A DNA stretch of 64,000 nucleotides from assembly GCA_963663225.1 (NCBI GenBank), contig OY760142.1:2976001-3040000 (forward strand), given 5' to 3'. Below are positions 16,167 to 22,252 of this stretch, in pieces. The stretch is from Nitrospirota bacterium. GTDB taxonomy: Bacteria; Nitrospirota; UBA9217. Below the pieces are notes generated by a model, which saw only the letters and a program-made list of their open reading frames with translations, was not told the DNA's origin and searched no databases. A program made the position numbers and the translations under genes. How positions within the stretch are numbered: the stretch's first letter is position 1; each line of letters opens with the position of its first letter.

Positions 16167-16645
16167 GAACGACGAAGGAACTCTCCTGTCCTCCACCTGT
16201 CTCTGCACCGTTCAAGCATTGCCGGTGAGAGAATCGCGGGTTTACCGGTTTTATGGTCCGTAAAAAGCTGGACGGTATATCCGCTTGTGGCCAGTGTTCC
16301 GTCTTGCTTTATTACCTGGAATTCCGTATTCAGTCTTGCGCCCTCGTGCCAGATGAGGGATGCCCTTACAGTAAACTCTTCATCAAGGAAAAGCGGCTGA
16401 AAATAATCAATATGGAGTTCTACAATGGGGGCGCGCAGCCCGGCTTCAAAAAAATCCTTATACGACATGCCGCATCGCCTGCCGAGTTCTTCCGAGGCTT
16501 CCTCGAACAAGAGCGGATATCTTCCATGCCACATGATCGCCATGGGATCCGCCTCATTAAAATGAACGCGGTGCCTGACCTCAACACGAACGGGTTCAGG
16601 GGAGCCCGGCATCCGCTCAAAATATTGTTTTTGTCTTCTTCTCAT
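16163..16645 (-). CDS. Acyl-CoA/ACP thioesterase (4HBT-like hot-dog fold)
   Basis: RVHFNEADPMAIMWHGRY...FEEA motif. Confidence 0.85.
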   Translation of the reverse strand: MRRRQKQYFERMPGSPEPVRVEVRHRVHFNEADPMAIMWHGRYPLLFEEASEELGRRCGMSYKDFFEAGLRAPIVELHIDYFQPLFLDEEFTVRASLIWHEGARLNTEFQVIKQDGTLATSGYTVQLFTDHKTGKPAILSPAMLERCRDRWRTGEFLRRS

Positions 16646-17040
16646 GGGAGTCGTTGTTTTTTCTTTCCGCTTTTGAAAACAACCCGCAGCTTCAGTTCGG
16701 CAACTTTTGCATCGGCTTTCGTAATAGCCGCTTTGAAAGTGGACTCACCGCCGTCCTCACCGATACTGATGAGCTGGCAGGTTATTTCCTCCTCGGGAAA
16801 CACGGGGGTCAGGTATTTTGCAAGAATAATCTCTTTGAGGCCGACTGTTTTCCCGAATGCTTTTTCGAGCGTTGTGACGGCACATTGAATCTGGCAGGCG
16901 CCCGGCAAAACTTTTTTTGCAGGGAAATGACCCTGGAAGCCTATGAACTCCTGCGGGAAAATAAACCGTGAAGCAACCGACCGGTCGTCTTTTGTCAAAC
17001 CGATCATATGCCGCTCGACCTCGGCTTTGATCTTACTCAC
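16642..17040 (-). CDS. 3-hydroxyacyl-ACP dehydratase subunit (FabA/FabZ, ApeI-like)
   Basis: FQGHFP...LPGACQIQ motif; 132 aa hot-dog size. Confidence 0.82.
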   Translation of the reverse strand: MSKIKAEVERHMIGLTKDDRSVASRFIFPQEFIGFQGHFPAKKVLPGACQIQCAVTTLEKAFGKTVGLKEIILAKYLTPVFPEEEITCQLISIGEDGGESTFKAAITKADAKVAELKLRVVFKSGKKKQRLP

Positions 17041-17705
17041 TAATTGAGCTCCTTATGATGTACGGTCAACGTATAGCCGTGTTGGTAGTTGACCAGAATG
17101 ATGTCCTGCGGAAAACGCTTTCCCTTAAAATCCCGATACCCGTTGTAAGAGATTTGCCAGGCAATTATATGGTTTTCATCGTAGTAGCGTTTTTCAACAA
17201 GATCACCCTGCTGTCTTGAAAAAATATATTCTATGAATCCGGCGTCCCAAACCTGTCTGTAGTGAAACCGATATTTTCTTTTCCATACCGATGCTTCGGA
17301 AGAGGGAAGAAGATTAAAATAGATGCGCCTGATATCAGTGCTTACAGCTGCAGCAATGTCTCCGTATTGGAGAAGAACCCCTATGGCGTACTGGGTTGTT
17401 ACCATGCGTTCATCCCCGGACAGTTCGAACAGCTTCACGCCCATTGGATTCAGGCACGCAACCCTAAAAAGATGCTTGTTTGTATCGATTTCCAGGGTGC
17501 CGAGACCGAGAAATTTTTGACCATTATACTCAAAAACAACTGTGTTAAGCAATTGAAAAATTTCCGGAATTGATAAACGGAACCTTTCCACAACGGCTTG
17601 CGGATCAGCAGATTCCGCAGAACTGGAGGTTGTCCCTTGGATCGGAGCATGAGTACACCCGTAAAAAAAAGCTAACAGTATGAATAGTAAATGAAATCGC
17701 TTCAT
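17040..17705 (-). CDS. Lipoprotein, DUF3261/ApeN-like
   Basis: Signal peptide with FYGC lipobox; NPMGVKLFEL...DIRRIYF; position directly after the MMPL gene as in aryl-polyene clusters. Start ATG 17705 overlaps the MMPL stop. Confidence 0.6.
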   Translation of the reverse strand: MKRFHLLFILLAFFYGCTHAPIQGTTSSSAESADPQAVVERFRLSIPEIFQLLNTVVFEYNGQKFLGLGTLEIDTNKHLFRVACLNPMGVKLFELSGDERMVTTQYAIGVLLQYGDIAAAVSTDIRRIYFNLLPSSEASVWKRKYRFHYRQVWDAGFIEYIFSRQQGDLVEKRYYDENHIIAWQISYNGYRDFKGKRFPQDIILVNYQHGYTLTVHHKELN

Positions 17706-20089: not shown

Positions 20090-20768
20090 GCCCTTTCACC
20101 TCAAAGCTGCCGGTGCTCAGCGGGACATTCAACAGGGTGTTGGTAAAATGGATGGTCGTAACATCGCCGTTCAGTTCTTTAATCCGTATCTGGCGGAGGT
20201 ATTTTTGGTCTTCCCGGAACGTAATCGTTATATTTTTGATGATTTTTTTTGCAATATTTTTTTCGCTCGGGGTAAATTCAAGGACCAGGGGTTCACGGCT
20301 CACCAGACGCACGGTATTTACGTCGAGAAGCGTGCCATATTCGCCGGAGAACCATACAGTCAATTGGCTCAGCACATTCTGAAAAATTTGGTTCTTTTTG
20401 AGCGATATCTCCTGCACCTGGTTCGTGTCCTCGTCCCATTGGCGGATGATTTTATCAGTGATAAGGACGGAATAGCGCAGAGGTGAGTCCACGTGCCATG
20501 CGATTTTATCCGGTTTTTGGAGATAAATCCGTCCTTTTAAAATCAGTTTGTCTTTGAACATGGCCATTTCTTTTTCCTGGGTGAAGGCAGTGCTGAGTGT
20601 TTTAAAATCAGAGACTTTTTTCCCGAGGGTGTTCAGAAATTGGGAAAGATCAGCGCGTTCCGTCTGCAGATCTCCGGATGGTTCCGCAGAAAAAGCAGGA
20701 CAAACCGGGAGCAGAAGACAAAACATCATGAGACAGGCAACAAAACTGGAACAAATGTATTGTATCAT
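20082..20768 (-). CDS. LolA-like periplasmic lipid carrier
   Basis: Signal peptide; FTQEK...GRIYLQKPDKIAWH...P; GDVTTIHFTN...F LolA-fold pattern. Confidence 0.82.
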   Translation of the reverse strand: MIQYICSSFVACLMMFCLLLPVCPAFSAEPSGDLQTERADLSQFLNTLGKKVSDFKTLSTAFTQEKEMAMFKDKLILKGRIYLQKPDKIAWHVDSPLRYSVLITDKIIRQWDEDTNQVQEISLKKNQIFQNVLSQLTVWFSGEYGTLLDVNTVRLVSREPLVLEFTPSEKNIAKKIIKNITITFREDQKYLRQIRIKELNGDVTTIHFTNTLLNVPLSTGSFEVKGHV

Positions 20769-22252
20769 TATGCCGCCGCCTTGCCGTCGCGCCAGACCTT
20801 CAATTCCCCGTGCGCAATGAGTGTGTTTTCCTTTTTTATCTCTCCGCGAATAATGCCGAAATCACCCAGTTTCGCGACTTTATAAATCGTGATCCGGAGA
20901 ATATCTCCGACCCGAGCGCTGCCGAGAATTTCAAATTTTTTTATTCCGAGCAGATATCCTTCCTGCTGCGGATTGCGGCTGCCGACTTCACGAAAACCTT
21001 CCATGGCGGCTAGCGCCTGGGAAATAATTTCAGGATAAGACGCCTCATCAAGTTTTCCGTTTTCCGATACAAAAACCATATCCTGCCGAACGGTCATTTC
21101 CGAGATGGACTCCCGCTCCCGCAGTTCAAGCAGGCGGTCGATAAGAAGCATGGGGGATTTATGGGGGACGACCCGTGCGGCATCAACAGGCAGAAACATA
21201 ATATCATCACGGCGGTCAAGATTATGCCAGCAGAGAGGGTCTGACGCCAGGTAGTCACCCGTCAGTTGGTAGGCCGCACCCCGGCAACCGTAGCACTCGT
21301 CTATCTTGGCACATTCTCCGCACGGCCCCTTTATCAGTTCTTTGTATCGTTTCAGGTCCTGCACAACTTCACTGTCATGCAGAATGTCTTTCAACCGTTG
21401 TTTTCTTACGTTTCCGATGGGAAAGGTAATCCCCACGCAGGGTTGCACGTATCCTTCTGAATTTACCGCACACGAGAACTGATGGCGGAGGCATTCACCT
21501 CCCACCAAAGGCGGCTTGGGATCCCAATGATAGCCGTATTTCGTTCTATCAATTTCCGATATGCGATTAAAGAATTCCTGCACAGTCCGGGAATCGACTT
21601 CCAGCATATTGTGTTCCCGGGCTCCACCCTGGGGGGTCATCATCTCAAAATACGGCATGATATGCTGGTCCCGAAGCCATTCCCACATGCGGGCCAATTC
21701 ATCGATATTCTGCTGGCAGATGATCGTACTGATCCCCATGGGATGTTCCGGCGACGGGTATCCCGCGCTCTTTAAGTTTTTCAAAGCTTCCTGTATCTGG
21801 GTATAAGCGCCTTTTCGGCCGGAAAGTGTGTCCTGGAGACTTTCGTCGAAGGTGTTCATTTTCAGGATCACCCGGGCATTGTTATCGTAAAAAAATTGCG
21901 CCATGGCAGGGGTGAGGCTTGTTCCGTTGGTAAATATCTCGATATCCATGCCCAGGCCCCTGATAAAGCGGATCATTTCCATAATATGGGGATACAGCAT
22001 GGGTTCGCCGCCGAGAATGATGATTTTGCGGGCAGATAGCTCTTTTGCCTGTGTAATGACGTCTTTGAATTCTTCTTTGGTCAATTCGTCTCGCCGACGG
22101 GCAGTGTCCGAAGCATAGCAATAGATGCAGCGGAAATTGCAGCTCTGATTAAACTCAATTTCCATCGAAAGGAGTCTGCCGTCACGCACGGCATCCGCAA
22201 TCTCCTGCTGAGAGAATTCAGCACCGTAGATTCTGCTTTGACAACTAGTCAT
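20768..22252 (-). CDS. Radical SAM/SPASM protein fused to a C-terminal hot-dog (FabZ/ApeP-like) domain
   Basis: CNFRCIYC, GGEP, SPASM cysteines (C...C...GYVQPC...IGN...CGEC...CYGCR...DPLC), then about 140 aa VPHKSPMLLIDRLL...EIISQALAA...GYLLGIKKF...VGD...GELKVW. Confidence 0.85.
   Translation of the reverse strand: MTSCQSRIYGAEFSQQEIADAVRDGRLLSMEIEFNQSCNFRCIYCYASDTARRRDELTKEEFKDVITQAKELSARKIIILGGEPMLYPHIMEMIRFIRGLGMDIEIFTNGTSLTPAMAQFFYDNNARVILKMNTFDESLQDTLSGRKGAYTQIQEALKNLKSAGYPSPEHPMGISTIICQQNIDELARMWEWLRDQHIMPYFEMMTPQGGAREHNMLEVDSRTVQEFFNRISEIDRTKYGYHWDPKPPLVGGECLRHQFSCAVNSEGYVQPCVGITFPIGNVRKQRLKDILHDSEVVQDLKRYKELIKGPCGECAKIDECYGCRGAAYQLTGDYLASDPLCWHNLDRRDDIMFLPVDAARVVPHKSPMLLIDRLLELRERESISEMTVRQDMVFVSENGKLDEASYPEIISQALAAMEGFREVGSRNPQQEGYLLGIKKFEILGSARVGDILRITIYKVAKLGDFGIIRGEIKKENTLIAHGELKVWRDGKAAA

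Follow-up and report, generated by a model that had tools for sequence, protein, structure and literature searches.

A conserved fusion of a radical SAM/SPASM protein with an ApeP-like hot-dog domain in a ladderane-like gene cluster of Nitrospirota

A radical SAM/SPASM protein continues in frame into a hot-dog domain

We analysed a 64,000-nucleotide stretch of DNA from a Nitrospirota bacterium (hereafter the window), which corresponds to bases 2,976,001-3,040,000 of one 3.26-Mb single-contig genome that is 99% complete and whose nearest named relatives are uncultured Nitrospiraceae metagenome-assembled genomes (MAGs). The gene under study encodes a 494-amino-acid (aa) protein in which a radical SAM domain, a SPASM domain and a hot-dog domain of the dehydratase type follow one another. 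A second, shorter gene of the same strand encodes a 132-aa hot-dog protein, referred to here as the partner. A reading of the window from sequence only had described both genes and had proposed that they form one dehydratase that carries a radical enzyme. For the long gene, the open reading frame (ORF), the motifs, Pfam and Foldseek all agree that the three domains lie in one frame. Both genes belong to a long operon-like cluster on the minus strand (Table 1).

The radical SAM core of the fusion spans residues ~28-240 and the SPASM region residues ~250-342; a conserved junction of ~20 residues leads into an ApeP-like hot-dog domain at residues ~355-490. The motif CNFRCIYC (residues 38-45) supplies the CX3CX2C cysteines C38, C42 and C45, and GGEP, of the GGE type that is the SAM-binding motif of radical SAM enzymes, lies at residues 81-84. 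The cysteines of the SPASM region are at positions 254, 261, 272, 311, 314, 320, 323 and 341, in the pattern C261-X5-G267-X4-C272, then C311-X2-C314-X5-C320-X2-C323, then C341, plus C254. The seven-Cys SPASM motif is CX9-15GX4C...CX2CX5CX3C...C, and the fusion therefore differs from it in the last CxxC spacing, which is CX2C instead of CX3C. Pfam Radical_SAM (PF04055) scored 85.9 bits (cut-off 29.5) and Pfam SPASM (PF13186) 32.8 bits (cut-off 21.5). An AlphaFold2 model built with 69 homologues reached a pLDDT of 82.8 and a pTM of 0.83, and Foldseek matched its N-terminal part to SkfB, SuiB, MoaA, PqqE and anSME with E values of 1e-15 to 1e-10. The best NCBIfam hits, AhbD (141.6 bits, cut-off 500), NirJ2 (125.8 bits, cut-off 500) and PqqE (104.3 bits, cut-off 381), fell below the equivalog cut-offs, and no NCBIfam model was reached that captures the fusion family. 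On these scores the radical SAM part is placed nearest to the AhbD/NirJ/PqqE group, of which AhbD and NirJ modify small molecules and PqqE peptides, and is a member of none of those families.

The last SPASM cysteine, C341, is separated from the first hot-dog motif at residue 363 by nucleotides (nt) ~21226-21166 of the window, an interval that includes the junction predicted near 21190. The hot-dog domain contains PHKSPMLLID at residues 363-372, with His364, and EIISQ at residues 408-412, with Glu408 and Gln412. It lacks GHFP, and 14 residues before Glu408, where FabZ has its His, it carries Phe394. Its closest hot-dog match was 6qsr_B, the ApeP chain of a solved ApeI:ApeP complex, with a phmmer E value of 3.9e-7, a Foldseek TM score of 0.77 on the target, a root-mean-square deviation of 2.8 and ~23% identity.

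The fused frame is conserved

At least 120 homologue clusters contain the fusion, and all 120 listed comprise proteins of 487-499 aa that cover the whole protein at 69-98% identity; the converse case, in which homologues would always be separate genes, was not what we found. All 13 cysteine positions are conserved and 12 are invariant in 69/69 aligned homologues, as are GGEP, His364, Glu408 and Gln412. Conservation of residues 341-360, which form the junction, is 83%, about level with the flanking domains. The whole cluster of ~19 genes is collinear in 16/16 genome loci, which belong to MAGs of Nitrospirota, Geobacterales, Desulfuromonadales and Pelobacter. The radical SAM part of the fusion is among the best-conserved products of the cluster, being 70-80% identical between Nitrospirota and Geobacterales.

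An independent biofilm metagenome yielded a 62-kb contig that differs from the fusion gene by 33 substitutions, 30 of which are synonymous, and by no insertions or deletions (indels). Contigs from two other sequencing runs span the junction without indels. The fused frame is under purifying selection over its full length. An assembly or frameshift artefact was considered and is ruled out by the single-contig genome, by the fused frame in 120/120 listed clusters and by the indel-free contigs across the junction. We regard the fusion as virtually certain to be real.

In 301 sampled Nitrospirota genomes the fusion was found 33 times: 31 copies are intact, one is cut at a contig end and one is broken in frame inside the hot-dog domain. 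The broken copy, in genome G206 (C12:285260-286745), is split into two frames at residues 389/390 and not at the junction. Genome G227 has a second, degraded fusion copy with several in-frame TGA codons (C8:1353239-1354602). In-frame TGA was also seen in the orthologues of G220 and G287, and the case in G220 (locus L037) is a natural stop that was read through. Within the branch of the window there were 19 short matches, four on long contigs and most on contigs of 1-4 kb, where they are probably cut at the contig ends.

Beyond this branch, some distant members are named as MAGs of Spartobacteria, Omnitrophota and Lentisphaerota, and atlas clusters that combine Radical_SAM, SPASM and ApeP-like domains are commonest in Nitrospirota and Lentisphaerota. 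Public annotation of family members reads 'radical SAM protein' only. Between Nitrospirota and Geobacterales/Desulfuromonadales (loci L004-L016 compared with the window), identity is 70-83% for the fusion, one B12-binding radical SAM protein and a ketosynthase, and the genes are in the same order. Such high identity across phyla could reflect recent transfer of the whole cluster or very strong constraint.

A putative partner: an ApeI-like hot-dog protein

The partner has GHFP with His38 and, within CQIQC, Gln52 at His+14, where FabZ has Glu; both features had been noted in the sequence-only reading. A profile of the partner family matched 6qsr_A, the ApeI chain, with an E value of 2.2e-6 and 3esi_A with 4e-7, while the FabZ model NF000582 scored 21.4 bits against a cut-off of 113. 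The partner gene is present in 15 of the 16 related loci, one copy being cut by a contig end, and the contig of the sixteenth stops before the position. His38 is invariant (15/15), and the residue at His+14 is Gln in 13, Leu in one and Glu in one of the 15 sequences and never Asp. On the fusion side, Glu408 and Gln412 are invariant in 46/46 sequences, diverged forms included, and position 394 is never His.

The two chains were modelled together. With the fusion at full length, the complex model scored 0.82 and the best control 0.19, at a mark that 58/80 solved complexes and 2/110 mismatched pairs reach. A like complex, 6QSR, is solved; the score therefore speaks for likeness and for compatibility of the full-length protein, may reflect memory of that structure by the model and is not independent proof of binding. 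The runs agreed in at least 97% of contacts, with a pLDDT of at least 86 for the partner. All contacts of the fusion fell within residues 363-442; Glu408 touches residues 46 and 48 of the partner, whose His38 loop is likewise at the modelled interface.

The same division of motifs occurs in relatives. We surveyed the 150 nearest representatives of the hot-dog domain at 50% identity, 91 of which are at most 200 aa long. Among these short forms the Glu motif E..[AS]Q was found in 87/91 and GHF in 0/91. Fourteen representatives are natural ApeP+ApeI double hot-dogs, and in 14/14 the Glu motif is confined to the N-terminal half and GHF to the C-terminal half; in 12/14 the residue at His+14 is non-acidic. 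The complementarity of His and Glu is thus an ordinary trait of the ApeP/ApeI family, as judged from these sequences, and is not special to this locus.

Gln52 of the partner is part of the symmetric site, where the His is missing in any case, so that one composite site of His38 and Glu408 should be left. The ApeP-like domain and the ApeI-like partner would then be the only beta-hydroxyacyl-acyl carrier protein (ACP) dehydratase of the cluster, with a single composite active site made of partner His38 and fusion Glu408 and a dead second site made of Phe394 and Gln52. Collectively, these data make an ApeI:ApeP-type heterodimer very likely, and the hot-dog pair is probably the pathway dehydratase with one His38/Glu408 site. 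The claim that the two hot-dog domains are complementary halves of one dehydratase thus holds up on homology to 6QSR, the complex model, the double hot-dogs and co-occurrence in 15 of 16 loci; what does not stand is complementarity as a peculiarity of this locus.

The surrounding gene cluster

The cluster runs on the minus strand from position 28162 down to the window start and is bordered upstream by PheT and PheS (Table 1). Directly upstream of the fusion gene, and overlapping it by 4 nt, is the ligase gene. Domain scans of the cluster genes found no dehydratase besides the hot-dog pair and recognised no gene for starter synthesis. The genome has two FabA/FabZ-family genes, both outside the cluster, and a genome search with PF07977 matched neither hot-dog half. 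Four radical SAM genes were counted in the cluster. The ORF with GT2 and DUF2062 domains (10405-11742) shares ~150 nt with the end of the TIGR04072 gene, and the TTG start of this ORF was probably called too far upstream.

Table 1. Genes and protein parts of the minus-strand cluster, with positions in the window.
Feature	Position	Strand	Remarks
SDR ketoreductase	27377-28162	-	First cluster gene; PheT upstream
Phytoene-desaturase-like FAD oxidoreductase	25829-27325	-	
Beta-ketoacyl-ACP synthase	24606-25832	-	
ACP of the cluster	24311-24652	-	PP-binding
LPLAT-type acyltransferase	23550-24314	-	ApeD-like
ApeH/FlxY-like acyl-AMP ligase	22249-23553	-	Pfam AMP-binding; NCBIfam FlxY 464.3 bits, cut-off 520
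Fusion gene	20768-22252	-	494 aa
Radical SAM-SPASM part of fusion	21221-22252	-	Residues 1-344
ApeP-like hot-dog part of fusion	20771-21220	-	Residues 345-494
LolA-like protein	20082-20768	-	Export module (17040-20768)
RND/MMPL-type transporter	17702-20089	-	Export module
DUF3261/LolB-like protein	17040-17747	-	Export module
ApeI-like hot-dog partner	16642-17040	-	132 aa; GHFP His38, Gln52 at FabZ-Glu position
4HBT thioesterase	16163-16645	-	
Ketosynthase (KS)	15048-16208	-	
Short KS-like protein	14220-14894	-	Chain-length-factor candidate
Two B12-binding radical SAM genes	11594-14223	-	Pfam
'Lipid biosynthesis B12-binding/radical SAM protein'	11594-12964	-	TIGR04072, 622.6 bits, cut-off 360
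Remainder of cluster	92-11742	-	GT2+DUF2062, LpxL-like acyltransferase, polysaccharide deacetylase, then genes to window edge
KS/KS-like pair	5936-8178	-	
439-aa ORF	4295-5614	-	No Pfam hit
FAD_oxidored-family enzyme	3093-4298	-	
Second AMP-ligase	1617-3053	-	
Third B12-binding radical SAM	92-1582	-	

A proposed bifunctional subunit of a lipid pathway

We propose a bifunctional role for the fusion in a type II fatty-acid/polyketide pathway that makes lipids, resembles the aryl-polyene (Ape) pathway and belongs to the 'ladderane-like' class: the fusion would provide one half of the dehydratase together with an intact radical SAM enzyme that acts on the pathway chain or starter. We assign this reading a probability of roughly 0.6. 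The N-terminal part would be a radical SAM enzyme that is intact and has two auxiliary SPASM clusters. This enzyme would abstract hydrogen from an ACP-tethered chain, or from a ligase-loaded starter, of the same pathway, and an oxidative or C-C-forming tailoring step would come next. Because the radical domain is covalently held on the dehydratase, hydrogen abstraction from the chain or starter of that same pathway is the most likely activity. In the branch of the window every ligand is conserved and identity across phyla is 70-80%, so the protein there is very probably an active radical enzyme; for the radical domain as such, the conserved ligands make activity likely. That it acts on an ACP-bound chain is more tentative, and we put this at somewhat less than an even chance. 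Candidate chemistries may be oxidation, desaturation, C-C coupling or cyclisation, either during elongation or on the ligase-loaded starter.

In a more specific form of the proposal, the radical SAM step would be an integral part of the elongation cycle. Hydrogen would be removed from the ACP-tethered 3-hydroxy or enoyl chain by the SPASM enzyme while this chain is held by the dehydratase, and the two auxiliary clusters would drive the anaerobic formation of a C-C bond, a cyclisation or a desaturation, in each cycle or at a fixed length; such a step would be the conserved core of 'ladderane-like' pathways. An unfused orthologue holds the same place in Kuenenia-type loci, so the same logic would form the 'ladderane-like' core there. 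We regard this elaboration as doubtful. Its counterpart in the literature is 'type c', a stepwise scheme put forward in Dietl 2023.

Several observations weigh against the bifunctional reading, the first of which concerns the hot-dog pair. Pfam ApeP-like (PF22817) scored 19.7 bits on the fusion (22.4 bits in the genome scan), below its cut-off of 27, despite a precomputed Pfam column that gives PF22817 for all 120 listed homologues, and Pfam ApeI-like (PF22818) scored 21.9 bits on the partner, below its cut-off of 28.5. These scores, the two FabA/FabZ-family genes elsewhere in the genome and the replacement by Gln52 of the acidic residue that canonical ApeI proteins keep (Asp in 6qsr_A and 3esi_A) would suit a pair that has lost its dehydratase function. 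In that case the ApeP-like domain would help the radical enzyme to recognise acyl-ACP, like the leader-peptide-binding domain of peptide-modifying SPASM enzymes, and a housekeeping FabZ would carry out dehydration. However, His38, Glu408 and Gln412 are invariant and placed at the modelled interface, the lost acidic residue sits in the site that does not function in ApeP-type pairs anyway, and most of the natural double hot-dogs lack it too. Loss of dehydratase function is therefore very improbable.

The second observation is that the radical enzyme also exists unfused. Orthologues of 358-383 aa that are 44-47% identical to the radical SAM-SPASM part and end a few residues past the last SPASM Cys were found in 4 of the 301 Nitrospirota genomes. 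Their loci share a constant triad of ligase, radical SAM-SPASM and B12-binding radical SAM genes. In locus L035 the triad is followed by genes for an SDR, an ACP, a FabA-family protein, a phosphopantetheinyl transferase, a methyltransferase, an MMPL protein, a PDH-like protein and a glycosyltransferase (GT). The separate FabZ-like gene of L035 (14102-14521, plus strand) has GQFM for GHFP and thus no catalytic His, and it keeps IEAMAQ; no His-bearing hot-dog partner was found among the scanned ORFs of this 20-kb locus. Since unfused orthologues stand beside a separate FabZ-like gene, tethering is not required for the shared function.

The ligase is the constant neighbour of the radical SAM gene, in 16/16 fused and 4/4 unfused loci, which fits a starter as substrate as well as elongation intermediates. 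It raises the alternative that the radical SAM enzyme acts at initiation, on a starter acid or starter-ACP activated by the ApeH/FlxY-like ligase, and that fusion to the hot-dog domain is incidental. The constancy of the triad in the unfused type is consistent with this alternative, as is the fact that the nearest named radical SAM families, AhbD and NirJ, act on carboxylate-bearing small molecules. An incidental fusion is at odds with a junction as conserved as the domains that it joins and with purifying selection along the whole fused frame, and a starter pathway with the failure of the domain scans to recognise a starter-synthesis gene in the cluster. We consider action at initiation with an incidental fusion unlikely.

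Third, the radical site can be lost while the fusion is kept. Among 23 diverged full-length fused representatives, CX3CX2C is kept in 8 and lost in 15, while the four cysteines that we take, by analogy with anSME, to be those of auxiliary cluster II are kept in 22, those of auxiliary cluster I in 16 and Glu408/Gln412 in all 23. The triad-less relatives (P0142, P0146, P0153, P0160, P0163, P0164, P0166, P0167, P0173, P0180, P0195, P0210, P0214, P0249 and P0251; 456-501 aa) also lack GGEP and keep the cysteines of auxiliary cluster II, the junction 'GCRG..TGDYLASDP.C' and the hot-dog Glu. From their motifs they look like 'pseudo-radical-SAM' dehydratase subunits, and the loss of the triad with the fusion kept suggests that the N-terminal domain can persist in a non-radical role. 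An atlas cluster with SPASM and ApeP-like domains and no Radical_SAM Pfam hit is commonest in Planctomycetota. With P0142 as query, no match was found in the metagenome contigs. The pseudo-radical-SAM forms group among the fused forms in a quick tree of the radical SAM-SPASM part; this tree leaves 15 of its 33 inner branches open, contains several long branches and was built without P0151, P0152 and P0264 and with only 6 of the close-family rows.

Fourth, the hot-dog domain is joined to other partners. It lies behind LPLAT in four representatives (P0150, P0267, P0273 and P0280), behind LPLAT and a SPASM remnant in P0151 (717 aa) and in front of a LolA domain in P0175 (720 aa), which is a canonical radical SAM fusion; the 14 ApeP+ApeI double hot-dogs add a fusion to an ApeI-like domain. 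LPLAT, LolA and ApeI-like proteins are all operon neighbours of the hot-dog domain, so fusion tracks gene order. Such fusions argue for one assembly line, not necessarily for hand-over of substrate between fused domains.

Together, the triad-less forms, the Planctomycetota cluster and the fusions to operon neighbours are what would be expected if the fusion were mainly a scaffold, in which an N-terminal iron-sulfur or structural module assembles or stabilises the dehydratase and its neighbours, fusion reflects operon adjacency rather than channelling, and radical chemistry, where kept, is separate. In the branch of the window, however, the radical SAM and SPASM ligands are invariant in 69/69 homologues, and a scaffold role alone would hardly account for the Nitrospirota-Geobacterales identity of the radical SAM part. 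A scaffold role is thus decidedly unlikely for the fusion of the window. The proposal that the dehydratase physically carries the radical enzyme accordingly stands as far as the fused frame is concerned; it is qualified by the unfused orthologues, by the triad-less majority of the diverged fusions and by the fusions to other neighbours, and the bifunctional reading remains the one that we prefer.

Novelty and significance

No published description of a radical SAM-SPASM::ApeP-like fusion was found in the full-text literature, supplements and most subscription papers lying outside the coverage of that search; within these bounds, the earlier impression that no enzyme of this architecture has been characterised is borne out. 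In the available portion of PMC12114271, the mentions of SPASM and hotdog are unrelated to the fusion. What is already known is the cluster class, which is uncharacterised, the heteromeric dehydratase (6QSR) and SPASM enzymes. New are the covalent radical SAM-SPASM::ApeP-like architecture and the evolutionary series of unfused, fused-active and fused-degenerate forms.

What the SAM radical genes of ladderane-like clusters do has been a question ever since these genes were described, and the accessible part of Rattray 2009 includes a reviewer's request for experiments (PMC2649909). Of the genomic hints so far, a radical SAM/SPASM enzyme joined to a dehydratase subunit points most directly to the substrate, namely carrier-protein-bound chains of the pathway. 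Heterologous expression of the Kuenenia radical SAM genes alone failed, according to the available text of PMC4790861. The fusion names the partners for co-expression (fusion, 132-aa ApeI-like protein and cluster ACP), and a fused, co-folding version of the Geobacter or Nitrospirota type may behave better in expression. If the radical step does belong to the elongation cycle, this fused form would be the easiest experimental entry. The branches with and without the radical cluster provide a natural experiment within one family. The fusion is thus a concrete, testable handle on the role of radical SAM enzymes in ladderane-like lipid pathways.

Comparison with known systems

Grammbitter et al. 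2019 is said to be the primary paper on the ApeI:ApeP dehydratase. In the ApeI:ApeP heterocomplex of Xenorhabdus doucetiae (PDB 6QSR), two different hot-dog chains are combined, as is proposed here. ApeP (6qsr_B) has PH...LL and E..AQ and lacks the GHF His, features that it shares with the hot-dog domain of the fusion, and ApeI (6qsr_A) and 3esi_A have GHF, as does the partner. The systems differ at His+14, where both ApeI-type chains keep Asp and the partner of the window has Gln, and in the form of the ApeP-type chain, which is separate in 6QSR and is here the C-terminus of a radical SAM/SPASM protein. In FabZ and FabA the active site lies across the dimer interface, with His from one chain and the acidic residue from the other, as described in the accessible text of PMC10139942. 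FabZ and FabA have the hot-dog fold as well and were among the Foldseek matches. Each chain of those homodimers carries both residues. In contrast, each chain carries one of them here, which allows activity at just one of the two symmetric sites.

SPASM is a C-terminal Cys-rich extension that binds two auxiliary [4Fe-4S] clusters, according to the available part of PMC13459092. The SPASM enzymes anSME, PqqE, SkfB and SuiB share with the fusion the CX3CX2C motif, a partial TIM-barrel core and the Cys-rich domain of the two auxiliary clusters. The fusion differs from them in having no peptide substrate gene and no recognition domain, and in the hot-dog domain that follows the last SPASM Cys.

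The E. coli table of aryl-polyene (Ape) genes, as given in the accessible part of PMC8253772, comprises an ApeH ligase, ACP, KS with chain-length factor, ketoreductase, ApeI/ApeP, thioesterase, LPLAT, GT, LolA, RND and DUF3261. All of these functions are encoded on one strand of the window, from 28162 to 9525. The order from ligase to ketosynthase follows that table, and the order of the export module is that of ApeL-M-N. Beyond an Ape cluster, the window has a PDH-like gene, the four radical SAM genes and a second ligase.

The mix of genes connects the window with a cluster class that has been noted in Kuenenia stuttgartiensis, Desulfotalea psychrophila, Geobacter and Pelobacter, as far as the available portions of the two reports show (Rattray 2009, PMC2649909; Javidpour 2016, PMC4790861). 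In those portions and in the window, the shared genes encode several FabF paralogues, phytoene-desaturase-like enzymes, a phenylacetyl-CoA-ligase-like enzyme, SAM radical enzymes, a GT and a deacetylase. The TIGR04072 gene near the fusion corresponds to a model named 'rSAM_ladder_B12'. In excerpts of PMC2649909 and PMC9902471, non-anammox bacteria with such clusters have no linked ladderane lipids, and a match to TIGR04072 therefore does not show ladderane production. The excerpted text of PMC9902471 also gives antiSMASH 'ladderane' calls in many non-anammox phyla, with products unknown in many anaerobic phyla.

The unfused loci are the closest counterparts of the Kuenenia cluster. Four loci from Nitrospirota, a non-anammox phylum (L033-L036), are collinear with the published Kuenenia list from kuste3351 to kuste3335. 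The full Kuenenia-type order was read in L035 (deacetylase, KS, KS-like, methyltransferase, KS, ligase, SAM, SAM, FabG, ACP, FabZ, methyltransferase, membrane protein, PDH, GT), and L033, L034 and L036 share core genes. In the part of PMC4790861 available to us, the order of functions from kuste3344 to kuste3335 matches that of the unfused loci, Kuste3343 and Kuste3342 are called only 'SAM radical enzymes', a separate 'FabZ' is assigned to kuste3339 and a fusion is not mentioned. From gene order, we infer that the radical SAM-SPASM protein is orthologous to Kuste3343 and DP1855. The window type adds the Ape export module (LolA, RND and DUF3261) to the ladderane-like gene set. The cluster of the window is thus one of the 'ladderane-like' class, which is known but uncharacterised, and it differs from the unfused Nitrospirota loci in that its ApeP-like domain and radical SAM/SPASM enzyme are one protein.

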